Origin: an uncultured Enterobacteriaceae bacterium
GTDB taxonomy: Bacteria; Desulfobacterota; Binatia; UBA12015
Direction: 5' to 3'
Assembly (NCBI GenBank): GCA_964529315.1
Contig: CAZGUU010000001.1
Location: 2,902-66,901 of the forward strand
DNA: 64,000 bases
Shown here piece after piece: positions 12,477 through 48,956 of the stretch. The position numbers and the translations under genes were made by a program. Within the stretch, counting starts at the first letter, position 1. Each line of letters starts with the position of its first letter. Under the pieces are notes generated by a model that made no database searches, was not told the origin of the DNA, and saw nothing but the letters and a program-made list of their open reading frames with translations.

Positions 12477-12761
12477 GCGGCCAGACGGCGACGGGGTTGC
12501 CGCCGGTCCCGCCCGGAGGGTGAGCGGCGAGGCCACGGCCGACCGGGGACCAGGCCGCCGGAGCCGCATCTCCGCATCGCCCGGTGCGCGCGACCGAGGC
12601 CCGCCCGTCTCGTCGCAGGGCTGGCAGCGATCGCGCGCACGCCGTGCCCCGCCTCGCATCGACGTCGCTGCTCGATGGGACGTCATAGAACGTGGTTTGC
12701 GTTTCTTGCGCTCCAGCACTCCCGTCAGCTTCCGATTGCACGCCGGAGCTCTGCTTCTGGT

Positions 12762-14273
12762 ATGTCCGGGCCGATGCGCGCCTACGCCGACGAGACGATC
12801 GCCGCAGTCGCCACACCGGCGGGTGTAGGCGCGATCGCCGTCGTCCGCATGAGTGGTCGCTTGGCGCTGGACGTCGCCGCGCGCGTTCTCGTTCGGCGCG
12901 ACGCCCTGCGTCCTGTCGCGCGCCTGCGCGACTCGCACCGAGCACGCATCGCCCGCATCTGGGATCCCGAGACCCACCAGATCTTGGACGAAGTCCTCGT
13001 CCTGCCGATGCTCGCACCGCGCAGCGCCACCGGTGAGGACGTGGTCGAGATCCACTGCCACGGCGGGCCATTGGTGTCCGATCTGATCCTGCGTGCCCTG
13101 CTGCGGGCGGGCGCCAGGGCTGCCCGCCCAGGCGAGTTCACGGAGCGCGCTTTCTTGAACGGTCGCATCGACCTCTGCCAGGCCGAGGCGGTCGCAGATC
13201 TCATCGCCGCCAGAAGCGACGCGGGTCTGGATTCAGCCCGCCTGCAGCTCGAGGGCCGGCTGTCGCAGACCATCGCCTCGTTGCGCGAGCGCATCGTGGA
13301 GGCGCGCGCCCTGACCGAAGCTTACCTCGACTTCAGTGACGAGGACCTCCCCGAGAGCGAGCGCGCGGAGTTGCTCGACGCCATCGCGTCCCTGCGTCAC
13401 GACGCTCGCGAGCTTGGGAGCAGCTATCGGCGCGGACGCCTCGCCAGAGAGGGCCTACGAATCGCCCTGGCCGGCAAGCCCAACGTCGGCAAGTCCTCCC
13501 TACTCAACAGCCTCCTCGGCCGCGAGCGCGCGCTGGTCAGCTCCGTCCCGGGGACCACGCGCGACTACCTCGAGGAGCCGCTGGCCATCGGCACGCTAGG
13601 CGCGCTTCTCTGCGACACGGCCGGGCTACGCTCAGCCGTCGATCCGGTCGAGCTGGCCGGTGTCACGCGAGCCGCGGAGAGGATCCGTGAGGCGGACGTC
13701 ATTCTCGTCGTCCTCGACGGCTCTGTCGCCCTGGACGCCGACGACCGCCTTGCGCTGCAGCCGACCAGCGGCGGACCACCGAGAATCGTCCTGCGCAACA
13801 AGGCGGACCTTCCGGCGGTGTGGACCTGGCCCGAGGCCGAGAGCTTTTTCGGGATCGGCTCGGGCAGAGACGAAGCCTCTCGTGAGGCCGAGTGCAGCGA
13901 CTCGGCAGGCCGGCAGTCAAGGCTGCCCGCGGCGAGCAGGCGCGACCCCGTCGCGGCATCCCTCGACGTATCGGCCAAGACGGGAGAGGGGATCGCCGAG
14001 CTCTGCCGTGCAATCCAGAGCACGATCCTGCCTGCTGCGGACACGAGCTGCGCGGAGCGCCCGAGCATCACGCGGGCGCGCCACGAGAGCGCTCTCGGTC
14101 GGGCGGTCGAGCTGCTCGAGGGCGCGGAGCGTCGGGTCCGGGAGTGGGCGGAGCTCGACCTGGCGGCGATCGACCTCAGCGCCGCCACGTTGGCCCTCGA
14201 CGCCCTTCTCGGCACGATCCACGACGAGGAGGTGCTCGACGCGATCTTCCGCAGGTTCTGCGTCGGCAAGTGA
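12762..14273 (+). CDS. mnmE: tRNA modification GTPase MnmE
   Basis: GTPase motifs [21 protein letters not shown]-terminal CVGK. Start trimmed to MSGPMRAY; an ATG at 12774 is also possible. About 30 extra residues between G4 and G5. Confidence 0.9.
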
Positions 14274-14291
14274 CCTCGGCCTCTTCCCCGG

Positions 14292-14307
14292 AGTTTCACG
14301 TGGAACA
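14292..14307. promoter_or_regulatory. parS: parS-like site AGTTTCACGTGGAACA (14/16 to TGTTTCACGTGAAACA), overlapping the GTG start codon of mnmG
   Basis: Seen directly. It is the reverse complement of the site at 16931-16946. Confidence 0.6.
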
Positions 14308-16171
14308 CTATGACGTCATCGTCGTCGGAGCGGGGCACGCAGGCATCGAGACGGCGCTCGCGGCAGCGCGCTTGGGTGCCCGGACGCTTCTGCTGACCCA
14401 GAATCTCGATCAAATCGGCCAGATGTCGTGCAACCCAGCCATAGGCGGTGTGGGCAAGGGGCATCTCGTCAAGGAGATCGATGCGCTCGGCGGAGAGATG
14501 GCCCTGGCGATCGACGCCTGCGGGATCCAGTTCCGCACACTGAACACCCGCAAGGGTCGGTCCGTCCAGGCGACACGGGCACAGGCAGACAAAGCAGCCT
14601 ACCGGCGGTACATGAAGGCTGCGGTCGAGCGGACGCCAGCTCTGACGGTCAGCCAGGCGACGGTAGAGCAGCTCCACGTCGAGGCTGGGGTGGCTCGCGG
14701 CGTCGAGACCACGCTCGGCGATTCCTTCCTGGCGCGCGCCACGGTGCTGACGACGGGGACCTTCCTGGGGGGATCGATCCACGTCGGTGACCGCTCGTTC
14801 CCGGGCGGTCGCGCCGGAGACCCGGCGAGCCACGGCTTGACCCCCCAGCTCGTCTCACTCGGCTTCGAGGTGGGTCGCCTGAAGACGGGAACCTGCCCGC
14901 GACTCGATGGCCGAACCATCGATTTCGCAGCCCTCGAAGCTCAGCCTTCGGACCCTTCGCCCGTCCCCTTCTCCTTCCGGACGACCCGGATCGGGCAGCC
15001 CCAGGTCCCCTGCCACATCACCTTCACGACCGCCGAGACCCACCGCCTGATCGCCGCGAACCTGGCGCGATCGGCCATGTTCAGCGGCCAGATTCGCGGT
15101 CGCGGGCCGCGCTACTGCCCATCCGTCGAGGACAAGATCGCGCGCTTCCCCGATCGACAGCGGCACCAGGTGTTTCTCGAGCCCGAGGGCCTCGACACGG
15201 TCGAGGTCTACCCCAACGGCCTCTCCACATCGCTGCCGCTCGACGTGCAACGCGCCATGGTGCGCACGATCCCGGGCCTCGAGAACGCGCAGATCACGCG
15301 ACCTGGCTATGCCGTCGAGTATGACTTCGTCGACCCGCTCGAGCTGGGCCCCAGCCTGGAGACGAAGCGGGTCCGTGGCCTCTATCTCGCGGGTCAGATC
15401 AACGGCACGACGGGCTACGAGGAAGCCGCCGCCCAGGGGCTCGTCGCTGGCGTCAACGCCGCCCGGGCCTCGCGCTCAGAGCCACCGATCGTCCTGGGGC
15501 GCGAGAGCAGCTACATCGGCGTGCTGATCGACGATCTGGTCACCAAAGGGGTCGGCGGCGAGCCCTATCGCATGTTCACCTCGCGCGCAGAGCACCGCCT
15601 GCTGCTGCGGGAGGACAACGCCGACCAGCGTCTGAGCCCGCTCGGCCGCGAAATCGGCCTCCTCGATTCCGCTACGTCCGACCTGGTCGAGGCGAGAAGA
15701 GCGGCAGCCGCCGGTCTTCGCGAGATGCTCGAAGGAGCGGCGCTCGCCCCCACACCGCAGATCAGCGCGATATTGGTCACCCACGGTCTCACGGCACTGC
15801 GCAAGCCGAGCTCTCTCGCGGAGGTCTTGCGACGTCCCGGGGCAGATTGGCGGGTGGTCGAATCGCTGGGTTTCGCGGTCTCCGAGGACCCGCGGGTTCG
15901 CGACCAAGTTCTCCTCGACGTGAAGTACCACGGATACGTCACTCGCCAGGAGGAGATCGTCCACCAGCTCCGCCGCATGGAGGATGCCGAGGTTCCGGCG
16001 ACAACCGATTTCGCCGCGATCGATGGGCTCTCGACCGAGGTCCGAGAGAAGCTGTCCCGGGTCCAGCCGCGTACCATTGGCCAGGCCACTCGAATCCCGG
16101 GCATCACTCCGGCCGCCGTCTCGCTCCTGCGCATCCACCTCGTGCGAGCGCAACGTTCACGGCAGAGCTAA
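14300..16171 (+). CDS. mnmG: tRNA uridine 5-carboxymethylaminomethyl modification enzyme MnmG (GidA)
   Basis: GTG start giving [17 protein letters not shown] (FAD-binding GxGxxG). Strong homology through the whole length. The upstream in-frame extension of the ORF track is low-complexity. Confidence 0.9.
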
Positions 16172-16180
16172 GACTCTCGA

Positions 16181-16942
16181 GTGCCCGCCCGAAGGCTCGA
16201 TGGGCAGAGCCCCGCTCATGCGCGCTCTACGAGGGCACGCCGGCGCGGCCCCCTTTCGCTCGACGGCGAGCGGGTGCGCATGCTGCGCCAGGTGGCCGAG
16301 CAGCTGGGCGTGGCGATCGATGATCGGGCGCTCGCCGAGCTGGGAGCCTATCTCGTCGAGCTCGACCACTGGTCTCGGCACGTGAACCTGGTTTCGCAGC
16401 GCGACCTGGAGCGCTTCGTCGAACGCCACATCGTCGACTCGCTGGTCGGTGCGCCCGCGCTGGCCGGTCTGGGCTCGTCTCTGGAAATCGCCGACATTGG
16501 AAGTGGCAACGGCTTGCCGGGCGTGCCGCTGGCCATCGTGCTTCGTCCCCGGCGGATGCTGCTCGTGGAGGCTCGCCGCAAGCGCGCCAGCTTCTTGCGC
16601 GCCGTGGCTCGCCGCCTGAGCGATGTCCCGCTCGAAGTTCGCAACGTCCGAGCCGAGAACCTGGCCACCTCCGAGCCCGCCACCCTCGACGCCGTGGTCA
16701 GCCGTGCAGCCATCCCTGTCTCGTCGCTGCTCGCGATTGCCGGTCGCCTACTGAGGCCCGGCGGCCTGCTGATCCTTCACCGGGAACTGGAGGCTTCGCT
16801 GCCGGACCCGGGCCGGTCGCTGGTGATCCCTCAGGGTCTTGGCGACCCGCAGTTCGACGGCCCGAGCGCGCTGCGACACGATATCGAGCACGCAGCTCGC
16901 ACTCCGACCTGCGTCGTCTGGCGGCGGCAACGTTCCACGTGA
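16181..16942 (+). CDS. rsmG: 16S rRNA (guanine527-N7)-methyltransferase RsmG (GidB)
   Basis: SAM motif IADIGSGNGLPGVPLAI. The GTG at 16181 follows the mnmG stop by 10 nt. The first 33 aa are Arg-rich and low-complexity, so the true start may be the ATG at 16280 (MLRQVAEQLG). Confidence 0.8.
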   Translation: MPARRLDGQSPAHARSTRARRRGPLSLDGERVRMLRQVAEQLGVAIDDRALAELGAYLVELDHWSRHVNLVSQRDLERFVERHIVDSLVGAPALAGLGSSLEIADIGSGNGLPGVPLAIVLRPRRMLLVEARRKRASFLRAVARRLSDVPLEVRNVRAENLATSEPATLDAVVSRAAIPVSSLLAIAGRLLRPGGLLILHRELEASLPDPGRSLVIPQGLGDPQFDGPSALRHDIEHAARTPTCVVWRRQRST

Positions 16943-16946
16943 AACA
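16931..16946. promoter_or_regulatory. parS: parS-like site CGTTCCACGTGAAACA (14/16 to consensus), containing the rsmG TGA stop codon
   Basis: Seen directly. Its 14-nt core is identical to the reverse complement of the site at 14292-14307. Confidence 0.6.
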
Positions 16947-17135
16947 CCCGAGCGATTAAGACCGATCCAGCCCGCCCGCAGCTCGACGCGGCAGGTGCAT
17001 CCGCCTCCGCCAGGCCAGCTACGAGCCCGCCAGAAGACGTGCAGGGCGGGGCTGCAACGGGCGGCTCGAGCTCTCGTGCGCCACCTCCCGGGCGTTCCGA
17101 GAAGCCCTCGGAGCGATGCTCGACCGGGCGCTTTC

Positions 17136-17176
17136 TGTGCGGCGCGCAAATCTGCTAGTGAGCGGCGCGCAGCACA
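17136..17176. promoter_or_regulatory. Inverted repeat TGTGCGGCGCGC..(17 nt)..GCGCGCAGCACA ending on the parA ATG; a candidate operator or 5'-UTR hairpin
   Basis: Arms 17136-17147 and 17165-17176 are reverse complements with one mismatch. Confidence 0.35.
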
Positions 17177-17946
17177 TGGGACGCGTCATTGCCATCGTGA
17201 ACCAGAAGGGCGGTGTGGGGAAGACGACCACCGCCGTGAACCTCGCCGCCGCACTCGCCATGACGGGTCAGGCGGTCCTGCTGGTCGACGTGGATCCCCA
17301 GTGTAGCGCGACCAGCGGCGTGGGCATTCGCGCCGGCGAGGGAGAGCCCTCCACATACGACCTGCTCCTCGGCCATGCGTCTGCCGAGGGAGCGCTACGC
17401 AAGACCATGCTGCCCGGCCTCCAGGTCCTGGCTGCGAGCCGCGACCTGGTTGGCGCCGAGATCGAGCTCGTGACGGCCGAGGCCCGAGAGCACCGCCTCA
17501 AAGAGGCGCTGGCCGCCGTACGCTGGCGGTACAATTTCGTCCTGGTGGACTGCCCACCCTCGCTCGGACTCGTCACACTGAATGCTCTGACCGCCTGCGA
17601 CTCGCTGCTGATCCCCCTGCAGTGCGAGTACTACGCGCTCGAGGGGCTGACGGCGCTCCTCGAGACGGTGGGTCTGGTCCGCGAGAGCTTGAACCCGGAA
17701 CTCGCCATCGAAGGCCTGCTGCTCACCATGTTCGATGGACGCAACACGCTCTGCCGTCAGGTCGCGGAGGACGTCCGCAGCCACTTCCAAGAAAAGGTCT
17801 TCACGACCATCATCCCGCGCAATGTCCGCTTGAGCGAGAGCCCGAGCCACGGACTCCCGGCACAGCTCTACGACCCATCGTCGCGAGGTGCGATCGCCTA
17901 CGGCGAGCTGGCTCGGGAGGTGATTGCCAACAGCCGAGATTCATAG
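17176..17946 (+). CDS. parA: Chromosome partitioning ATPase ParA (Soj)
   Basis: Start trimmed to MGRVIAIVNQKGGVGKTTTAVNLAAALA (deviant Walker A). 256 aa. Confidence 0.92.
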   Translation: MGRVIAIVNQKGGVGKTTTAVNLAAALAMTGQAVLLVDVDPQCSATSGVGIRAGEGEPSTYDLLLGHASAEGALRKTMLPGLQVLAASRDLVGAEIELVTAEAREHRLKEALAAVRWRYNFVLVDCPPSLGLVTLNALTACDSLLIPLQCEYYALEGLTALLETVGLVRESLNPELAIEGLLLTMFDGRNTLCRQVAEDVRSHFQEKVFTTIIPRNVRLSESPSHGLPAQLYDPSSRGAIAYGELAREVIANSRDS

Positions 17947-17962
17947 AACCGTGTTTTGATTC

Positions 17963-18895
17963 TTGGGGGACTCCATGCGGCAAGCTCTCGGCAAAGGTAT
18001 CGGCGCTCTGATTCCATCGGCAACCACCCGTACTCGCCAGGCGGGATCCGCGCCGATCGAGGCAGGACAGCATCGGGCACACGGCAGCGTGCAGCAGATC
18101 CCCATCGCCGCCGTCTCTTTGAATCCCCGTCAGCCGCGCCAGCACTTCGAGCAGAGCGAGCTCGACGACCTCGGCCGCTCCGTGGCCTTGCACGGCATCC
18201 TGCAGCCGATCCTCGTACGCCCTCTTGCCGACGGCCGCTTCGAGCTGATCGCCGGCGAACGCCGGCTGCGCGCGGCGCGTCTCGCAGCGCTCGAGACCAT
18301 CCCGGCCGTCGTCAAGCAGGCCGACGACGCTGCGAGCCTGGTCCTGGCAATCGTCGAGAACGTCCAGCGTGCCGACCTCTTTCCCCTGGAGGAGGCCCGA
18401 GCCTATCGCGAGCTGATGCGCGAGTTCTCCCTCACCCAGGAGCAGGTGGCCGAGCGGGTCGGCAAGAGCCGTCCTGCGGTGGCCAATACGCTCCGCCTGC
18501 TCCAGCTACCCGAAGAGGTCCAGGCCGATCTCGCCGCCGGCCGCATCACCGCCGGGCACGCCCGTGCGCTTCTCGCCCTCGAAACCGACGCCGCACGCGT
18601 CGCCTTCGCGCGCGAGATCGCCAACCGTCGGCTCTCCGTGCGCCAAGCGGAGCACGAGGCCGCCCGCTCCCGCCCTGCCCCGTCCCCCCCCGCCTCCATC
18701 GATCCCGACCTCGCCCGCATCGAGTCGGATCTCGGCCGCGCCCTGGGCACCAAGGCCTCCGTCCGCCTCTCCCGTGGTGCAAAGGGAGGCGGTCACATCG
18801 AGCTCGCCTTCTACTCCGACGACGACCTCGCCCGGCTCTGCGACTTGCTCCTGGCCAGCGCGACCCACAAGGCCCCGCGAGCCCACCGCGCCTGA
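17963..18895 (+). CDS. parB: Chromosome partitioning protein ParB
   Basis: N-terminal LGKGIGALI. ParB box GERRLRAARLA (CTP-binding motif). An HTH and a C-terminal dimerisation region. Confidence 0.92.
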   Translation: MGDSMRQALGKGIGALIPSATTRTRQAGSAPIEAGQHRAHGSVQQIPIAAVSLNPRQPRQHFEQSELDDLGRSVALHGILQPILVRPLADGRFELIAGERRLRAARLAALETIPAVVKQADDAASLVLAIVENVQRADLFPLEEARAYRELMREFSLTQEQVAERVGKSRPAVANTLRLLQLPEEVQADLAAGRITAGHARALLALETDAARVAFAREIANRRLSVRQAEHEAARSRPAPSPPASIDPDLARIESDLGRALGTKASVRLSRGAKGGGHIELAFYSDDDLARLCDLLLASATHKAPRAHRA

Positions 18896-18954: not shown

Positions 18955-18983
18955 TTGACATCCCCGCTTCTCGGTGGTAGCCA
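18955..18983 (+). promoter_or_regulatory. Sigma70-like promoter candidate (TTGACA, 17 nt, TAGCCA) upstream of the bactofilin gene
   Basis: Seen directly. The -10 is weak, so the call is tentative. Confidence 0.3.
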
Positions 18984-19066
18984 GGCGCGTTTGTGGCGCG
19001 GGCTGCGCCGCCCCTCCCAGGATGCGGAGCTGCGGCGAGCGTGTGCCACCTTTGCGAGATCATCGG

Positions 19067-19681
19067 ATGGCTCTCTTCAAGAAGGACCGGGATCGTGGCG
19101 AGCTCCCCAGAGCGGCGGAAGCCGAGCGGGTCCGTTCGGGCCCAGTCGAGCCGGCCCCCTCTGATGCTTCGCCGGTCGGACAACGAGCGGAGCGCGCGGG
19201 GGTGAGCATGGCTTCGTCCTACACGTCGACTGCCGAGAAGAGTCTCGATGCTGGCACCGCTCAGGCGAGCGCTTTCCTGGGCCGCGGCACTCGTGTCTCG
19301 GGCAAGGTCGCCTTCGAAGGTCCGGCCCGCATCGAGGGTCAGCTCGAGGGCGAGGTGATCGCCAACGATTCGCTGCTCGTCGGTGAGTCGGCTCTGCTCA
19401 ATGCACAGATCACCGGCGCAACGGTGGTGATCCACGGCAAGGTCACGGGCGACATCCACGCCACCAAGCGCCTGGAGATCCGCGCACCGGGACGGGTCTA
19501 CGGGAACGTCACGACGCCCAGCCTGGTGATCGAGGAAGGCGTCGTCTTCGAGGGCCACTGCTCGATGGGCGCAAGCGAGAGCCGCGGCACCAAGGTGACC
19601 CTGCTCGCCAAGGAAGAGAAGGCCGCTCCGGTCACCGCGGCTCCACCGACCACGCTCAAGGCCCAAGGCGACCTGAAGTAG
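19067..19681 (+). CDS. Bactofilin (BacM-like) immediately downstream of parAB
   Basis: DUF583 beta-helix repeats GTRVSGKVAFEGPARIEGQLEGEV.. and TGDIHATKRLEIRAPGRVYGNV. The N-terminus MALFKKDRDRG matches the bactofilin membrane-targeting MxxFxKK-type motif. An ATG at 19208 with a strong GGGGGTGAG RBS is an alternative start. Confidence 0.8.
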   Translation: MALFKKDRDRGELPRAAEAERVRSGPVEPAPSDASPVGQRAERAGVSMASSYTSTAEKSLDAGTAQASAFLGRGTRVSGKVAFEGPARIEGQLEGEVIANDSLLVGESALLNAQITGATVVIHGKVTGDIHATKRLEIRAPGRVYGNVTTPSLVIEEGVVFEGHCSMGASESRGTKVTLLAKEEKAAPVTAAPPTTLKAQGDLK

Positions 19682-39086: not shown

Positions 39087-41612
39087 TCAGCTCGCAGGCT
39101 CGGGACCACCTCCATCCTCCTCCAGCTCGCCGCTCGCCACGTCATCCTCGACCTCGCCGCCGTTGGCCGACGGCTCCGCTGGAGATCCGACGCGCTCTTC
39201 CATGTCTGCGACCCGTGCCAGGCTGACGACTCGCTCGCCCTCGTCCACCTCGAGCAGCTTCACGCCTTGCGTGTTCCGGCCGATCACGCGGATGTCGCTC
39301 GCTCGCAGGCGGATCAAGCGTCCGCGGTCGGTCACCAGCATCACCTCGTCGTCTTCGCCGATCTGGGCTACCCCGACCACGCCTCCGGTCTTCTCCGTGA
39401 CCTTCATCGTGATGATGCCCTTGCCTCCGCGCGACTGCAGCCGGTACTCCTCGAGCCCGCTGCGCTTTCCCTGCCCGTTCTCCGACACCGAGAGCACCGC
39501 AGCCTGCGGCGAGAGGATGTCGACGCTCACGACCTCGTCTTCTGGATCGAGCGAAACGCCCCTCACTCCACCGGCGCTCCGGCCCATGGCGCGGACGTCG
39601 GATTCCCGGAAGCGGATCGCCTGTCCGCCCCGGGTCGAAAGCAGTACCTCCTGCTCGGGGTCGACCAGCCGCACCCCGACGAGCCGATCCCCGTCGTCGA
39701 GACCGATGGCGATGATGCCTGCCGCGCGCCGGTTCGCATACGCCATCAGGTCGGTCTTCTTGACCATGCCCCTGCGGGTCGCGAAGAGCAGGTAGCGGCC
39801 GGGCTCGAACGCGGCGATGGGCAGGAAGGCCGAGAGCTTCTCGTCCGCTGCGAGCTGCAGCAGGTTGACGATGGCCTTGCCTCGCGCGGTGCGACCCCCT
39901 GGCGGGATCTCGTGCACCTTGCGCCAGTGGACGCGACCCGAGGTGGTGAAGAACAGGATGCTGTCGTGGCTCGAGGCGACGAAGAGGTGCGCGATGAAGT
40001 CGGCCTCGCGGGCTGGCGCGCCCACCTTACCACGCCCGCCGCGACGCTGGGCTCGGTACTCCGAGGCTGCGATGCGCTTGATGTACCCGGCGTGCGACAC
40101 CGTGACCGCCATGTCCTCGCGCGGGATCAGATCCTCGACGGAGAGATCCTCCGCCCTGCCGACGATCGTCGTGCGCCGGCGGTCGCCGTACTGCCCTCGG
40201 ATCTCGATCAGCTCGCCGCGGATGATCGCGTCCACCTCGGCGCGGTCCGCCAGGATGGCCTTGAGGCGGGCGATCAGGGCTTCCGTCTCGCGGTGCTCGT
40301 CGAGGATCTTGTCGCGCTCGAGGTTGGTCAACCGCTGCAGCCGCATGTCCAGGATGGCCTGCGCCTGGATCTCGGAGAGGCCGAAGCTCGCCATCAGACC
40401 CGAGCGCGCGGCGGCCGGGCTCGCCGACGAGCGGATCAGGGCAATGACCGCGTCGAGGTTCTCGAGGGCGATCTTGAGCCCGTCGAGGATGTGCAGGCGC
40501 TCTTCGGCCTTGCGCAGGTCGAACACGGTCCGCCGGGTCACCACCTCGCGGCGATGGTCGAGGAAGACCTGCAGCGCGTCGCGCAGGTTGAGCAGGCGGG
40601 GCCTGCCCTCGACGATCGCCAGCAGGTTGACGCCGAAGGACTCCTGCATGGCCGTCAGCTTGAACAGCTGGTTCAGGACGACCTGGCCCACGGCGTCCTT
40701 CTTGAGCTCGATCACGATCCGCATGCCATCGCGATCGGACTCGTCGCGCAGGTCCGAGATGCCCTCGATCTTCTTCTCGTTGACCAGCTCGGCGATGCGC
40801 TCGATGAGGCGCGCCTTGTTCACCTGATAGGGGATCGCGTCGACCACGATGGTCTCGCGGCCGGTGCGTGCGTCCTCCTCGATCTCGGCGCTGGCCCTCA
40901 TCTGGAGGATGCCGCGTCCCGTGGCGTAAGCCTCGCGAATGGGTGCGCTGCCGCAGATGAACCCACCCGTCGGGAAGTCGGGCCCGGGGATCCAGCGCAT
41001 CAGGTCGAGCGGCGTGAGCGAGGGATCGTCGAGCAGCGCGATGCAGCCGTCCACCAGCTCGGTCAGGTTGTGCGGCGGGACGTTGGTGGCCATCCCGACG
41101 GCGATGCCGGAGGCCCCATTGAGGAGTAGGTTGGGGATCTTGGCCGGAAGGACGACCGGCTCGCGCTCGGTGTCGTCGTAGTTGGCCGCGAAGTCGACGG
41201 TTTCGCGGTCGATGTCGGCCAAGAGCTCGCTCGCGATGCGTGCGAGGCGGATCTCCGTGTAGCGCATCGCCGCCGGCGCGTCGCCGTCGACCGAGCCGAA
41301 ATTGCCCTGCCCGTCTACCAACGGGTAGCGCATCGAAAAATCTTGCGCGAGGCGGACAATCGTGTCGTACACGGCGGCGTCGCCGTGCGGGTGGTACTTG
41401 CCGATCACGTCTCCGACGATGCGAGCCGACTTCTTGTAGCCCCGGTTCCAATCGACCCCGAGCTCGTTCATCGCGTAGAGCACGCGCCGGTGGACGGGCT
41501 TGAGGCCGTCGCGAGCGTCGGGAAGAGCGCGGCCGATGATCACGCTCATTGCGTAGTCCATGTAGGACTGACGCATCTCGTCTTCGATGCTGATCGGGAT
41601 TCGGTCGGCCAT
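39087..41612 (-). CDS. gyrA: DNA gyrase subunit A
   Basis: 841 aa. N-terminus [43 protein letters not shown], active-site Tyr region, acidic C-terminal tail. Confidence 0.97.
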
Positions 41613-41638
41613 CGGCTGGTTCTACGCTTCGCGCCTGC

Positions 41639-44089
<2,451 letters not shown>

Positions 44090-44207
44090 TTAACAGTATT
44101 TGCCGAAAGGTCGCTTATAGCAGACCGAGACGCCGAAAAGAAGCCCCGGCCAGGCCCGCGCACACGCTCCAGCGAACCCCTGCGATCCATCTCGGAATCG
44201 CCGCGGA

Positions 44208-45317
44208 TCAGAGTCGCATCGGCATCACGACGTAGCGGTAGGAGTCGTCTTCGTCGCTGCGGATGACCCCTGGGCTGGCATCGTCGATCAGCGAGATCTC
44301 GACCCGCTGGTCGTCCGGCAACACGGCCAGAACGTCGGTGAGATAGCGCGAGTTGAAGCCGACGGCGAGCTCGGCTCCCTCGTAGGCGACCTCGATCTCT
44401 TCGCTCGCCTCGCCGAAGTCCGGGCTGCTCGCCGAAACCGCGAGCTGTCCCGTGGTTGCTTGGAGCTTGACACCCCGCGCTCGGTCGCTGGCCACGACCG
44501 AAACTCGCCGCAATGCGGAGAGCAGCTCGCTCTTGTCGATCGCGATCTGGTGGCTGGCGGCCTTGGGAATCACCTGCTCGTAGTTCGGGAACTCGCCATC
44601 GACCAGACGCATGACCAGCTCGACGTTGGCCCGCACTACTCGCGCCGTGTTGCTGCCCACCGACAGGCGAGCCCTCCCTTCCTCGCCGACGATGAGCTTC
44701 TGGACTTCCACGAGGCCCTTTCGCGGCAGGATGGCGCCCTTCGTCTCGCCGCTTCCCTGCGCGCTCCCCTCCTCGACGAGAGCCAGACGATGGCCATCGG
44801 TGCCGACCAAGCGCAGGACGTTCTCGCTCTTCGACAGCAGAACCCCGCCCAGGTGCGGCCGGGTCTCGTCGGTAGACACGGCAAACAGGGTGCACTCGAT
44901 CATGCGAGCCAGCGTGTCGCAGGGCAGATCGACGACGACCCCGTCCTTCTCGTCCACTTGCGGGAAGCTCGGGAAGTCGCCTGCAGGCAGCCCGACCAGC
45001 TTCACGCGCGAGCGGCCCGACACGATCTCGACGAAGTGGTTCTCGAGCAGCCGCACCGTGACGTCACCCGGCTTCAGCTCGCGCACGAACTCGAAGAGCT
45101 TGCGCGCGCCGACCGTCGCTGCGCCCGATTCCCGGATCTTCGCCGTGCACCTGCGGCGGAGGTGCACCTCGAGGTCCGTCGCTGCGATCGACAAATCCTT
45201 GCCCGAGGCATCGAGCAGGACATTGGCGAGGATCGGAAGCGTATTGCGCCGCTCGACCACGCCCTGCGTGAGCGAGAGGCCCTGCAAGAACTCTCCTCGG
45301 TCGACCGAGAACTCCAT
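44208..45317 (-). CDS. dnaN: DNA polymerase III beta sliding clamp
   Basis: Trimmed to MEFSVDRGEFLQGLSL, with the strong RBS GGGGGGGAAG upstream. 369 aa, three-domain clamp. Confidence 0.93.
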   Translation of the reverse strand: MEFSVDRGEFLQGLSLTQGVVERRNTLPILANVLLDASGKDLSIAATDLEVHLRRRCTAKIRESGAATVGARKLFEFVRELKPGDVTVRLLENHFVEIVSGRSRVKLVGLPAGDFPSFPQVDEKDGVVVDLPCDTLARMIECTLFAVSTDETRPHLGGVLLSKSENVLRLVGTDGHRLALVEEGSAQGSGETKGAILPRKGLVEVQKLIVGEEGRARLSVGSNTARVVRANVELVMRLVDGEFPNYEQVIPKAASHQIAIDKSELLSALRRVSVVASDRARGVKLQATTGQLAVSASSPDFGEASEEIEVAYEGAELAVGFNSRYLTDVLAVLPDDQRVEISLIDDASPGVIRSDEDDSYRYVVMPMRL

Positions 45318-45387
45318 CACTTCCCCCCCGTTGGACGAGCACCCCCCGTGAGCGTGCTGCACCGCACTCCCCACGTGCCGCCGTCTT

Positions 45388-45584
45388 CTCTATTCTTCTT
45401 TATACTATTCAAATAGAGGTAGTAGAGCCTGTGGACACGGTGGACAAGGGATTCAACGCCGCGGTTCCCGGTCGCATTCACCTGTGGGAATGAAGGCGCC
45501 GCTGCCATCGGGCGCGAAGATCGCTCTGGTCGGCCGTGGATCTCCCCAGGTTGAGGGCGAGCAGCCCACAGGGAATCCACAAGC
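45388..45584. other. oriC: Candidate oriC core in the dnaA-dnaN intergenic region: a 40-bp AT-rich segment followed by tandem DnaA-box-like 9-mers
   Basis: TCTATTCTTCTTTATACTATTCAAATAGAGGTAGTAGAG (45388-45428). TGTGGACAC (45430-38) and GGTGGACAA (45439-47) abut each other. GAATCCACA at 45573-81. Each is 7-8 of 9 to TTATCCACA or TTGTCCACA. Confidence 0.45.
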
Positions 45585-45652
45585 GCTCGAAGAAGGAGCC
45601 AGTCCCCGGACCGAAGCCCTCTACGCTTCGCCGGGGCCGTGGCAGCGTCGCG

Positions 45653-47002
45653 TCAGGATGGCTGCTTCGTCAGGCTGCTCTCGAGCCCCTGGATGGTCGC
45701 GCGAAGCGCTGGGTCCCCGTCCAATCGGCGTGAGATGACGGTCTGGGCGTGGATCACCGTCGAGTGATCCCGCCCTCCGAACTTCGCGCCGATGACCGGG
45801 AAGGACGCGGCGACGAGCTTGCGCGACAGGTACATGGCAATCTGTCGCGGCACCGAGAGGTTCTGTGTCCTGCGCTTCGACTTGATCTCCGTCAGAGAGA
45901 GGCCGAAGTGCGCGCAAACCGCCTGCTGGACGTCGTCGATCGTCAGCTCCCGGCGGCGCTCGCGAAGGTGAGGCTGCAGCACGCTGCGTGCGAAGGGAAC
46001 CGTGATCTCGGCCCGTTGTAGAGAGGCCATCGCCCCGAGGCGCGTCAGGGCACCCTCGAGCTCGCGGACGTTGGTGGTGATCTCGGCGGCCATGAACGAG
46101 GCCACCTCCTCCGAGAGCGAGAACCCCTCCATCTCGGCCTTCTTTTGCAAGATGGCGACCCGGGTCTCCATCTCGGGAGCCTGGATGTCTGCGGTGAGGC
46201 CCCACTCGAAACGGTTGCGCAGGCGCTCCTCGAGGTCGGGGATGTCCTTGGGGAACTTGTCGGAGGTCAAGATGATCTGGCGGTGGCCTTCGTGCAGCGT
46301 GTTGAAAGTGTGGAAGAACTCCTCCTGGGTCCGCTCGCGGCCGGCGAGAAACTGGACGTCGTCGATGATCAGCAGGTCGACCTGACGCAGGCGGTTCTTG
46401 AACTCGTCCATGCGGTCGCGCCTGAGGGACGAGATCATGTCGTTCACGAACGACTCGCTCGCCATGTAGACGATCTTAGCCGAGGGGTTCCGCTTGAGGA
46501 CCGAGTGGCCGATGGCATTCACCAGGTGGGTCTTTCCCACCCCGACCCACCCGTAGACGAAGAGGGGGTTGTAGTGCTCGCCCGGCCGTCCCGCGACGGC
46601 GAGGGAAGCCGCGTGTGCGAACTCGTTGCTCGGCCCGACGACGAAGTTCTCGAAGGTGTAGTGCGGAACCAGATTGCCGACGCGAGCCGCCGGGCGTCGC
46701 ATCGCGGTGCGCGGCAGGGCCTCGGACTGGGTCTCGGCGGGCGCCGCGAAGAGCTCTCCCTGGTTGCCGTCGTCGACGCGAAAGACGATCTCCGGAGGCG
46801 GCTCGCTGCCGACTCGCAAGCAGGTCTTGATGGCGCCCAGGAAGTTGCGAGCGACCCAGTCGCGATAAAACTTGCTCGGTGCGCTGATGCACACCTTTCC
46901 GGCCCCGACCGAGGTGAATCGCAGGGGCTTGATCCAGGTCTCGAAGTTCCCCTCGCCGACCCGGTCGCGCAGGGCGACGCGGGCCTCCTCCCAGCTTTCC
47001 AT
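45653..47002 (-). CDS. dnaA: Chromosomal replication initiator protein DnaA
   Basis: 449 aa. AAA+ GxxGxGKTHL. DNA-binding domain IV at the C-terminus. RBS GAGGGG. Confidence 0.97.
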   Translation of the reverse strand: MESWEEARVALRDRVGEGNFETWIKPLRFTSVGAGKVCISAPSKFYRDWVARNFLGAIKTCLRVGSEPPPEIVFRVDDGNQGELFAAPAETQSEALPRTAMRRPAARVGNLVPHYTFENFVVGPSNEFAHAASLAVAGRPGEHYNPLFVYGWVGVGKTHLVNAIGHSVLKRNPSAKIVYMASESFVNDMISSLRRDRMDEFKNRLRQVDLLIIDDVQFLAGRERTQEEFFHTFNTLHEGHRQIILTSDKFPKDIPDLEERLRNRFEWGLTADIQAPEMETRVAILQKKAEMEGFSLSEEVASFMAAEITTNVRELEGALTRLGAMASLQRAEITVPFARSVLQPHLRERRRELTIDDVQQAVCAHFGLSLTEIKSKRRTQNLSVPRQIAMYLSRKLVAASFPVIGAKFGGRDHSTVIHAQTVISRRLDGDPALRATIQGLESSLTKQPS

Positions 47003-47031
47003 ACGGGTTACCCCTCTGCCGGCAAGAGGTT

Positions 47032-47185
47032 ATTCACAGGAATGTGCACACCTGTGGATGATCGAATATTCCACCCGAATTCCGGTGGTTTGCACCCACC
47101 AGCGCCAGGCCATTTTCACCTCGAACGACACTCTCTGAAGGGCGCCCGTTGGTTCGTGTTCCGGGACGGGCGGCCGAGATCCACA
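47032..47185. promoter_or_regulatory. DnaA-box-like motifs in the dnaA 5' region (autoregulation and/or a second oriC candidate), followed by an A-rich stretch at 47200-47400
   Basis: TTATTCACA (47032-40, 8/9). TGTGGATGA, which is the reverse of TCATCCACA (47055-63, 8/9). AGATCCACA (47177-85, 7/9). Confidence 0.45.
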
Positions 47186-47409
47186 CCGTGAGAAAACAAT
47201 GAGCCGTGGGATGCGAGAAAATGTCGTGCCTGCAGGCGCGAGGGCGCTTCTCTAGCGCCCGACCTTTCGCAGTTGCAAGAAGAAAAGCGAAAGCAGATGA
47301 GAAAGCTCCCGATATTGCACGAGAAAAAACTTCCGAGCGCGATTTCCTTGACGCTGCTGCGGGAGGTTGGTAAGCGCCGGTCTCCCTTTTCCCCATTGGA
47401 CATCGCAAC

Positions 47410-48690
47410 TTGCGAGAGGCATCACGAAAACTGCTGGCCCGCGCATCGCGGGTGTTGCCAGCTGGGGTAAACAGCCCGGTTCGCGCGTGGCGCGCGGTGG
47501 GAGGCGATCCCCCCTTCATCATTCGCGGTGAGGGAGTGCGCGTCGTCGATGCCGACGGCAACTCCTACCTCGATCTCGTCGGCGCCTGGGGCCCGCTCGT
47601 TGCGGGGCACGCGCCACCTCCCGTGGTCGCCGCGGTAGTCGAAGCCGTGCGGCGGGGAGCCGGCTTTGGTGCGCCGACACCCGTCGAGGTCGATCTCGCG
47701 GAGCGAGTGACGCAAGCCTTTCCCACGATCGAGAGGTTGCGTCTCGTCACCTCCGGAACCGAGGCGACGATGACCGCGATCCGCATCGCGCGGGCTGCGA
47801 CGGGCCGGTCGCGGCTGATCAAGTTCAATGGCTGCTATCACGGTCACAGCGACGACCTCTTGGTGCGCGCGGGGTCCGGCGCGGCGACGTTTGGGATCCC
47901 AGACAGCGCGGGCGTGCCCGAGGAGGCATCGCGGCTGACCAGCGTCGTGGAATACAACGATCTCCCCGGATTCCGTTCGGCCGTGCGAGAGGGGGCCCCG
48001 GTGGCGGCGGTGATCCTGGAGCCGATCGCCGCCAACATGGGGGTCGTTCCCCCGGAGCCCGGCTTTCTGGAGGGAGTCGTCGAGGCGGCACACGACCAGG
48101 GTGCGCTGGTGATTTTCGACGAGGTGATCTCGGGATTCCGGGTGGCGCGTGGTGGGGCACAGCAACTCTACGGCGTCGCGGCCGATCTCACCTGCCTCGG
48201 CAAGATCATCGGCGGCGGCTTGCCGGTCGGAGCGGTGGGCGGCCGAGCCGAGTTGCTCGATCTCCTTGCTCCGCTCGGGCCCGTCTACCAGGCGGGCACT
48301 CTCGCCGGAAACCCCGTGGCGTGTGCCGCCGGGTACGCGACACTGGAGTTGCTCACACCGGAGGCATACGCACGGCTCGAGGAGGCCGGGGCTTTTCTCG
48401 AGCGCGCCCTGAGAGGCGCGCTCGAGGATTCGTCGGTGATCGGCTGCGTGCAGCGCGCGGGCTCTCTTCTCACCATCTTTTTCGGGGTCGAGCGGGTGCG
48501 GAACTTCGTCGAGGCACAAGCCTGCGATACTGCGGCTTTCGCCCGCTTCTTCCGGAGGATGTTCGAGCGAGGCGTATACCTTCCGCCGTCTCAGTTCGAG
48601 GCGTGGTTCCTGAGCCTCGCGCATCGGCAAGAAGACCTCGATGAAATCGTGGCGGCTGCCCGTTCGAGCCTCGCTGGATCGAACGGTTGA
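47410..48690 (+). CDS. hemL: Glutamate-1-semialdehyde 2,1-aminomutase
   Basis: TTG start. ASRKLLARASRVLPAGVNSPVRAW aligns with the E. coli HemL N-terminus. PLP lysine context GKIIGGGLPVGA. Confidence 0.92.
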   Translation: MREASRKLLARASRVLPAGVNSPVRAWRAVGGDPPFIIRGEGVRVVDADGNSYLDLVGAWGPLVAGHAPPPVVAAVVEAVRRGAGFGAPTPVEVDLAERVTQAFPTIERLRLVTSGTEATMTAIRIARAATGRSRLIKFNGCYHGHSDDLLVRAGSGAATFGIPDSAGVPEEASRLTSVVEYNDLPGFRSAVREGAPVAAVILEPIAANMGVVPPEPGFLEGVVEAAHDQGALVIFDEVISGFRVARGGAQQLYGVAADLTCLGKIIGGGLPVGAVGGRAELLDLLAPLGPVYQAGTLAGNPVACAAGYATLELLTPEAYARLEEAGAFLERALRGALEDSSVIGCVQRAGSLLTIFFGVERVRNFVEAQACDTAAFARFFRRMFERGVYLPPSQFEAWFLSLAHRQEDLDEIVAAARSSLAGSNG

Positions 48691-48956
48691 GTTCTTCGCC
48701 GGCCGTGCCCCAAGGTAAGCAGCCGACGCCCGCCCAGCGGCGGCGTGAGCTGGCGATCCAGATGACGGCGCTCGGCCTCGAGTTTTCCGGGTCCGTTCTC
48801 GGCGGGCTCGGGCTGGGCTACTACCTCGACCAGTGGCTCGGGACGGAGCCGTGGTTGCTGATCCTTGCGACCTTCGGAGGCATGGGAGCCGCGGTGAGCC
48901 GCCTGATCGTGCTGACGAAGCGCTTTCAGCGGATTCGTGGGGATGGTGAGCGCTGA
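48687..48956 (+). CDS. atpZ: AtpZ-family small membrane protein encoded ahead of atpI
   Basis: LGLGYYLDQWLGTEPWLLILATFGGMGAAV matches the AtpZ DxWLGT motif. TTG start overlapping the hemL stop. An ATG at 48762 is an alternative start. Confidence 0.65.
   Translation: MSSSPAVPQGKQPTPAQRRRELAIQMTALGLEFSGSVLGGLGLGYYLDQWLGTEPWLLILATFGGMGAAVSRLIVLTKRFQRIRGDGER

Follow-up and report, generated by a model that had tools for sequence, protein, structure and literature searches.

Two 16-mers that resemble the parS centromere site fall on gene ends in the window (the whole 64-kb stretch of DNA analysed here), one in the translation-initiation region of mnmG and the other at the stop codon of rsmG, raising the question of whether they are genuine ParB-binding sites and, if so, whether the overlap itself has a function. 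We consider it very probable that both are origin-proximal parS sites of a chromosomal ParABS system, and that the codon overlap arose incidentally, from the compact arrangement of the locus and from the parS sequence itself. Both 16-mers are present as reported in the preliminary description: site 1, AGTTTCACGTGGAACA, at 14292..14307 and site 2, CGTTCCACGTGAAACA, at 16931..16946, neither assigned to a strand. Each departs from the consensus TGTTTCACGTGAAACA at two positions (14/16 agreement), and the 14-nt cores, GTTTCACGTGGAAC and GTTCCACGTGAAAC, are indeed exact reverse complements of each other. Both sites match GTTYCACGTGRAAC at 14 of 14 positions. Each is a hybrid of one GTTTCAC half and one GTTCCAC half, the latter a T-to-C variant that is the norm in several other lineages among related loci, and each departs from the consensus at its outer base, position 1 (A or C). 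These two features could make binding somewhat weaker than to a perfect palindrome.

The palindromic core CACGTG is widespread, and near-palindromes abound in GC-rich genomes; the window itself has scattered examples that match NGTTYCACGTGRAACN with three mismatches. Accordingly, the two sites might be chance matches, or belong to another CACGTG-binding factor or a restriction-modification system and merely resemble parS. We regard this explanation as highly improbable: two sites were observed where 0.02 were expected, the mean of 100 dinucleotide-preserving shuffles that never yielded two, identity spans all 14 core bases rather than CACGTG alone, and dozens of distant relatives encoding ParAB carry the same sites at the same gene junctions. 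Sites 1 and 2 are the only matches to TGTTTCACGTGAAACA with three or fewer mismatches in the 64-kb window. Further degenerate copies had been anticipated, but no site in the window has one or two mismatches to NGTTYCACGTGRAACN, and a heptamer half-site search of the window returned few, scattered hits and no additional degenerate parS. Both sites are located within 3 kb of parAB, with none elsewhere, a statement that applies to the 64-kb window and not to the whole chromosome.

The gene order is mnmE, mnmG, rsmG, parA, and parB, with mnmG-rsmG flanked by the two parS sites and directly upstream of parAB. A centromere cluster 0.2–3 kb upstream of parAB had been proposed. The distances hold, as the parA open reading frame (ORF) begins 170 nt downstream of site 2 and 2.8 kb from site 1, but there are two sites and no cluster. 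The parA gene (17116..17946, + strand) encodes a Soj-type deviant Walker A ATPase (KGGVGKT) and lies alongside parB. Its ORF matches ParA-family profiles, but is under the curated cutoff of the plasmid-type equivalog, and identity to ParA encoded beside ParB in relatives is 55%–79%. Matches to the homologue in locus L001 (79% identical) begin at residues 12–21, and the start may be M21 at 17176. The next gene, parB (17963..18895, + strand), encodes a canonical chromosomal ParB/Spo0J that matches TIGR00180 and the Pfam domains ParB_N (GERRLRAA), HTH_ParB, and ParB_C, with 1VZ0 (T. thermophilus Spo0J) and 6T1F (Caulobacter ParB crystallised with parS) as its best solved relatives. Contact residues were mapped by alignment to 6T1F and read against PMC7383237, in which R173 and G201 are the residues that determine specificity for parS versus NBS in Caulobacter ParB. 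GERRLRAA and the equivalents of Caulobacter Q162, G170-K171-S172-R173, N178, G201, and R204 were identified in the aligned window ParB, which combines the HTH, the parS-type contact and specificity residues, and the GERRxRA CTP motif of a cognate ParB. Elsewhere in the window, dnaA (45653..47002, − strand; TIGR00362) is followed by dnaN, gyrB, and gyrA, the four genes occupying 39–47 kb, with a DnaA-box-like pair at 47030–47061 and a cumulative GC-skew minimum (44–46 kb) and GC dip at 44–48 kb. The parS sites are ~29–33 kb from dnaA, and the dnaA region, DnaA-box-like pair, and GC skew together indicate that they are origin-proximal.

Site 1 lies just beyond mnmE (12675..14273, + strand; NCBIfam NF003661 and TIGR00450), whose TGA stop (14271–14273) is 18 nt before it. 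The following gene, mnmG (gidA; 14300..16171, + strand; TIGR00136, 814 bits), probably starts at GTG 14300, judging by comparison with relatives, and this GTG (14300–14302) corresponds to parS positions 9–11. It is the best-supported start because a GGAG, read from sequence as a Shine-Dalgarno-like motif (14290..14293, + strand), lies 6 nt upstream, because the TIGR00136 (MnmG equivalog) match begins at residue 4 of the resulting ORF, and because related MnmG proteins start 2–6 residues ahead of the DVIVVG motif. The last two bases of the GGAG are parS positions 1–2. The mnmG start codon is therefore probably inside site 1, as first described, although GTG 14270, which is in frame with mnmG with no stop between and overlaps the mnmE TGA as GTGA, is an alternative. 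Relatives have ATG where the window has the codon GAG (14291–14293).

At site 2, the stop codon is confirmed as had been noted: the TGA of rsmG (gidB; 16181..16942, + strand; RsmG equivalog TIGR00138 and Pfam GidB PF02527) occupies 16940–16942, which are parS positions 10–12. Positions 1–12 of the site supply the last three codons of the gene and its stop, CGT TCC ACG TGA (R-S-T-stop). At the other end of rsmG, translation may in fact begin at the ATG near 16280, since tblastn matches in relatives begin at residues 27–35.

The sites were compared across 160 related loci from genome and metagenome collections (labelled L001 etc.). No close relative of the window was found in either type of collection, and the top MnmG identity was 70%; the lineage of the window is Binatia-like (MnmG identity ≤70%). 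Its clade consists of L120, L081, and L001 (MnmG identity 66%–70%). Across the Binatia, Nitrospirota-like, and Bdellovibrionota-like lineages among the 160 loci, parS lies between mnmE and mnmG, between mnmG and rsmG, or between rsmG and parA, with the first and last of these positions conserved in many loci. The three closest relatives (L001, L081, and L120) match the window exactly in the register of parS, at the start of mnmG as well as at the stop of rsmG. The rsmG register, with the first base of parS 9 nt ahead of the stop, is common to these three and to L100, L011, L012, L008, and L089, such that the parS TGA terminates rsmG in no fewer than four clades (that of the window, L100, L011, and the L012/L008/L089 group), while decayed parS copies are present at the rsmG end in L004 and L014. 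The 16-mers are 93%–95% conserved, including codon third positions, versus 39%–53% for their flanks (95% at site 1 versus 53% for its 5′ flank). Based on a consensus match far beyond chance, a canonical ParB, a distance of ~30 kb to dnaA, and the same positions and register in relatives, we conclude from sequence comparison that the two 16-mers are real parS sites.

Conserved palindromes at gene ends could instead act in RNA, as a hairpin masking the mnmG start or as a signal downstream of rsmG for termination or processing, without being ParB sites. Folding of the 14-nt palindrome can give a 5-bp hairpin encompassing the GTG, and this small stem is present in the minimum-free-energy fold of 14262–14340. 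That fold, however, is no stabler than those of shuffled sequences (z = +0.85; equal or better folding in 160 of 200 shuffles), leading us to reject an RNA-structure role at the mnmG start. A T-run terminator is absent at both sites, an Rfam scan of the whole window gave no matches, and what is conserved is precisely the ParB recognition sequence, base by base rather than through compensatory changes. We give an RNA role in place of ParB binding hardly any credence.

We infer ParB binding, clamp loading, and the choice of start codon at this locus. As in other members of the family, each palindrome would be recognised by ParB dimers through their HTH domains, and ParB would bind CTP at the GERRxRA motif and close into sliding clamps, which would spread over the nearby few kilobases, here mnmG-rsmG-parAB. 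The complex would then be moved by ParA-ATP, and SMC would probably also be loaded by ParB. The parS sequence itself offers gene ends: a frame check showed that frame 0 reads C-F-T-stop (TGT TTC ACG TGA) and frame 2 reads F-H-V-K, the other parS frame, (A)TG TTT CAC GTG AAA CA, providing an ATG or GTG start. In this Binatia lineage, the rsmG frame enters one parS and ends at its TGA, and mnmG probably initiates inside the other. Selection for ParB binding would freeze the 16-mer, which would make the DNA site, rather than the proteins, the determinant of the MnmG N-terminus (M-F-H-V-K-H; fM-E-H in the window) and of the RsmG C-terminus ([C/R]-[F/S]-T). In the window, the ancestral ATG has become GAG. 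This substitution also produces a GGAG Shine-Dalgarno ahead of the GTG that lies within the parS core, and the mnmG start has therefore probably moved three codons downstream within the same site. The codon overlap is, on the comparison with relatives, old and dictated by the DNA site. The joint constraint on ParB binding and gene expression suggested in the preliminary description is one-sided, with conservation acting on the DNA site and the protein termini following.

A different view of genuine parS sites is that the overlap is functional regulation, tying the output of mnmG, rsmG, and parAB to the occupancy of the centromere. Bound or clamped ParB at site 1 would impede RNA polymerase travelling from mnmE into mnmG, and at site 2, ParB would modulate read-through or initiation into parAB. 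In its fullest form, this would be a selected Binatia device in which ParB occupancy or clamp loading gates transcription through mnmE-mnmG-rsmG into parAB, with mutation-proof start and stop codons; if true, cells would link the production of ParAB and of enzymes that modify tRNA and rRNA to centromere state. The exact register is kept on both genes in the clade of the window and on rsmG in at least four clades, a parAB promoter would be expected where site 2 sits (170–230 nt upstream of parA), and an effect of ParB on transcription has been proposed or reported for the mycobacterial gidB promoter, which overlaps parS (PMC2346475), as well as near parS in Vibrio and Pseudomonas. A stop or start that is provided by a frozen DNA site will nonetheless keep its register without any regulatory role, and the overlap is dispensable, because many relatives have equivalent parS sites 2–40 nt outside genes. 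Around the two sites, a scan for promoters of the sigma-70 type and for intrinsic terminators detected no promoter-like site at either, and its single terminator-like match, within chance expectation, was inside the parA start region and not at parS. We consider both the general regulatory reading and the dedicated Binatia device unlikely, and retain the by-product of a compact locus as the explanation of the overlap.

One or several origin-near parS sites are the norm (reviewed in PMC7333895). Like the parS of B. subtilis Spo0J, Caulobacter ParB, and T. thermophilus Spo0J (consensus tGTTNCACGTGAAACa), those of the window are 16-bp palindromes that are origin-proximal and adjoin parAB, with a canonical CTP-motif ParB carrying parS-type specificity residues. 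There is no mechanistic difference from these classical systems, the putative binding sites of the window being set apart by hybrid halves and by numbering only two in 64 kb. The location is similarly familiar, as Thermus thermophilus parSc is inside gidB (PMC4409726) and mycobacterial parS is upstream of or within gidB and parA (PMC2346475); in both, as here, parS is in or beside gidB/rsmG, directly before parA. That ParB bound there could influence gidB or parA expression has also been suggested previously (PMC4409726, PMC2346475). Unlike in Thermus and mycobacteria, one parS in the window forms the rsmG stop and a second forms the mnmG initiation region, in a register common to several Binatia lineages. 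A literature search, with subscription journals outside its scope, returned no paper on parS embedding start or stop codons or on parS in Binatia, which is weak evidence that none exists.

Given that parS beside gidB/rsmG and parAB is already known, the start and stop overlap is a small curiosity and no new mechanism, and current understanding of chromosome segregation is unchanged. These results do place a canonical ParABS centromere in Binatia, which are uncultured and known only from metagenome-assembled genomes, and indicate a simple architecture for this clade of two parS sites bracketing mnmG-rsmG. The less ordinary point is evolutionary: a strongly selected protein-binding DNA site appears to have been recruited to serve one gene as its stop codon and another as its start region. 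In dictating protein termini across lineages with only ~60%–70% MnmG identity, parS would be a cis-element that constrains coding sequence. Caution is advisable for gene callers, as the start and stop here would be fixed by a non-coding function.

The preliminary description suggested a comparison with Myxococcus xanthus, in which about two dozen parS sites lie upstream of parAB (Harms 2013; Iniesta 2014; both cited in the review PMC7333895). The comparison did not stand. The window has just two sites in 64 kb, neither clustered nor accompanied by degenerate copies, and derives from a Binatia-like rather than a Myxococcus-like organism. A Myxococcus-type cluster of ~20 or more closely spaced copies was accordingly rejected. 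What the two do share is parS upstream of parAB and a bactofilin gene following parB. This parB-then-bactofilin order resembles the M. xanthus parAB-padC-bacNOP neighbourhood.

Two parS-like 16-mers occur in the window, site 1 at 14292-14307 (AGTTTCACGTGGAACA) and site 2 at 16931-16946 (CGTTCCACGTGAAACA). Each differs from the parS consensus TGTTTCACGTGAAACA by two mismatches, and the 14-nt core of one is the exact reverse complement of the other's, both points in agreement with the preliminary description. The two sites are the sole matches to TGTTTCACGTGAAACA at ≤3 mismatches in the 64-kb window, and both match the degenerate consensus NGTTYCACGTGRAACN without mismatch. Further degenerate copies had been expected, but scanning the 64-kb window with NGTTYCACGTGRAACN returned none at one or two mismatches, and the three-mismatch matches were GC-rich near-palindromes dispersed over the window. 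A chance match, or the target of another CACGTG-binding factor, is excluded by the scarcity of such matches in shuffled sequence (mean of 0.02 over 100 dinucleotide-preserving shuffles, two never being reached) and by the conservation of 14 of 14 core bases beside parAB in many lineages. That the two predicted sites are parS is very probable.

Gene identification with NCBIfam and Pfam placed the sites among mnmE (12675-14273), mnmG (gidA; 14300-16171; TIGR00136, 814 bits), rsmG (gidB; 16181-16942), a Soj-type parA (17116-17946), and parB (17963-18895; ParB_N, HTH_ParB, and ParB_C domains), with rnpA and yidC upstream and a bactofilin gene and an F-type ATP synthase operon downstream. The dnaA (45653-47002), dnaN, gyrB, and gyrA genes, all on the minus strand, lie ~30 kb from the sites; a cumulative GC-skew minimum (~44-46 kb) and a GC dip fall in the dnaA region, and one pair of DnaA-box-like 9-mers (47030-47038 and 47053-47061) is found just upstream of dnaA. 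The 39087-48936 interval is the probable replication-origin region, and based on these genes, the skew minimum, and the DnaA-box-like 9-mers, both sites are origin-proximal. Part of this interval (47003-48936, ~1.9 kb) has lower G+C and holds no GC3-supported ORF. One or several origin-near parS sites, often adjoining parAB, are the textbook arrangement (PMC7333895), with parS located within gidB directly upstream of parA in Thermus thermophilus (PMC4409726), and upstream of or within gidB and also within parA in mycobacteria (PMC2346475). The parS clusters of Myxococcus, previously proposed for comparison, fit poorly on taxonomy and site number, as the organism here is Binatia-like and has two sites rather than a cluster.

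Among solved structures, the encoded ParB comes closest to T. thermophilus Spo0J (1VZ0) and Caulobacter ParB (6T1F, solved with parS). Interpreted against Jalal et al. 2020 (PMC7383237), the alignment revealed equivalents of Q162, G170-K171-S172, N178, and R204, in addition to R173 and G201, the two residues separating ParB from Noc; variable positions 179 and 184, typically lysines in Noc (PMC7383237), are T and Q. The CTP-binding motif reads GERRLRAA.

The claim that site 2 contains the rsmG stop is plain from the sequence: the final codons CGT TCC ACG TGA occupy parS positions 1-12, with TGA (16940-16942) at positions 10-12. At site 1, GTG 14300 coincides with parS positions 9-11, and is supported as the mnmG start by a GGAG (14290-14293) 6 nt 5' of it, by the MnmG equivalog model beginning at residue 4 of this ORF, and by related MnmG proteins starting just 2-6 residues ahead of the DVIVVGAG motif. 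An alternative in-frame GTG at 14270 overlaps the mnmE TGA as GTGA, so the mnmG start claimed in site 1 is favored, with moderate confidence, rather than settled; whichever start is used, parS falls among the opening codons if not in the initiation region itself. In relatives, matches to RsmG start at residues 27-35 and those to ParA at residues 12-21, and the true starts may be an ATG near 16280 (M34) instead of 16181 for rsmG and ATG 17176 (M21) instead of 17116 for parA, which would give a mnmG-rsmG spacer of ~108 nt and place site 2 ~230 nt from parA.

Searching with MnmG retrieved 80 loci each from species-representative genomes and metagenomes, in which MnmE, MnmG, RsmG, ParA, and ParB were mapped by tblastn before scanning for parS. 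The best matches were Candidatus Binatia MAGs at only 59%-70% identity (the nearest, L120 on contig Ga0070741_10000137, at only 70%), and the window thus represents a Binatia-like lineage lacking a close representative. Exact-sequence searches with its ParB and AtpA gave no hit, and its own genome seems not to be among the protein and contig collections. Sites recurred at three junctions (mnmE-mnmG, mnmG-rsmG, and rsmG-parA) throughout Binatia and in Nitrospirota-like and Bdellovibrionota-like loci. Sites 2-25 nt past the rsmG stop were common. An exact parS lay from -16 to +30 relative to the stop in 19 of the 67 loci whose rsmG end was complete, and the commonest single offset was -9, with the parS TGA as the stop.

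In a neighbor-joining (NJ) tree of MnmG, the window clusters with loci L120, L081, and L001, and all four carry parS on the mnmG start and rsmG stop in identical register. The mnmG start in these three relatives reads aTG TTy CAC GTG AAA CA (M-F-H-V-K-H/Q), its ATG formed by the base preceding parS and parS positions 1-2; the window has lost this ATG (gAG TTT CAC GTG GAA CA), and the two substitutions removing it also make the GGAG that would serve as Shine-Dalgarno for the parS-core GTG. The window's start looks to have moved three codons inside one site. The rsmG stop is also the parS TGA in L100, L011, L012, L008, and L089, whereas in L004 and L014 the parS at the stop has decayed, these loci spanning at least three clades of the tree besides the window's. 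Across the eleven loci ending at parS or decayed parS, the rsmG-stop 16-mer was 93% conserved, codon third positions included, compared with 52% and 39% for its 24-nt flanks, and the mnmG-start site was 95% conserved vs 53% for its 5' flank. Variation in the RsmG tail was limited to what parS permits (C/R from T/C at position 1; F/S from T/C at position 5). The overlap with these codons is genuine and its conservation ancient, and the constrained entity is the DNA site; the joint constraint on ParB binding and gene expression suggested earlier is one-sided, the protein termini following the conserved site.

Read in frame 0, a perfect parS encodes C-F-T-stop; frames 1 and 2 give V-S-R-E-T and F-H-V-K, respectively. 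A gene whose 3' end enters parS in frame 0 would be forced to terminate, and one starting there in frame 2 would be offered GTG, or ATG too if A precedes the site. Once taken, such codons would be shielded by selection for ParB binding, and long persistence would therefore be expected without regulatory purpose. Many relatives have the same sites outside genes by a few to 40 nt, indicating that the overlap is dispensable; its most likely origin is passive capture, in which adjacent reading frames have taken up a frozen cis-element. A less likely alternative is regulatory coupling, with ParB perhaps impeding RNA polymerase between mnmE and mnmG or on its way into parAB, as suggested for mycobacterial gidB and parA (PMC2346475); no observation here demands it. 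An RNA-level role of the palindromes is not supported, as the region around the mnmG start did not fold better than its shuffled versions (z = +0.85), neither site had a terminator-like or promoter-like element, and no Rfam match was found anywhere in the window. No paper noting parS as a source of start or stop codons was found in open-access text. Passive capture neatly illustrates how a DNA-binding site can constrain protein termini, and these sites give an initial view of how the centromere is built in an uncultured class (Binatia).

The bactofilin gene (18974-19681, plus strand; PF04519, 96 bits) is immediately 3' of parB, and also occurs at L120 (9828-10433), L081 (9569-10159), and L001 (9607-10206). 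This adjacency was present in 24 of 49 parB-holding related loci, from Binatia, Nitrospirota-like, and Bdellovibrionota-like lineages, and resembles the parAB-padC-bacNOP neighborhood of Myxococcus xanthus. A further case of mnmG-embedded parS was found in a lineage with ~52% MnmG identity to the window, where TGTTCCACGTGGAACA is perfectly conserved 739 nt from the mnmG start in the F-H-V-E-Q frame (L142 2481, L144 5737, L151 3678, and L155 5731); the window has no parS at this internal position. In a Binataceae-like clade of Binatia (L003, L005, L013, L085, L088, L091, and L097), parS sites are paired at fixed spacing, 65-66 bp apart in the mnmG-rsmG spacer (L003 3750/3816; L005 6898/6963) and 110-116 bp apart in the rsmG-parA spacer (L003 4601/4712; L005 7953/8064), which suggests a constrained higher-order arrangement.
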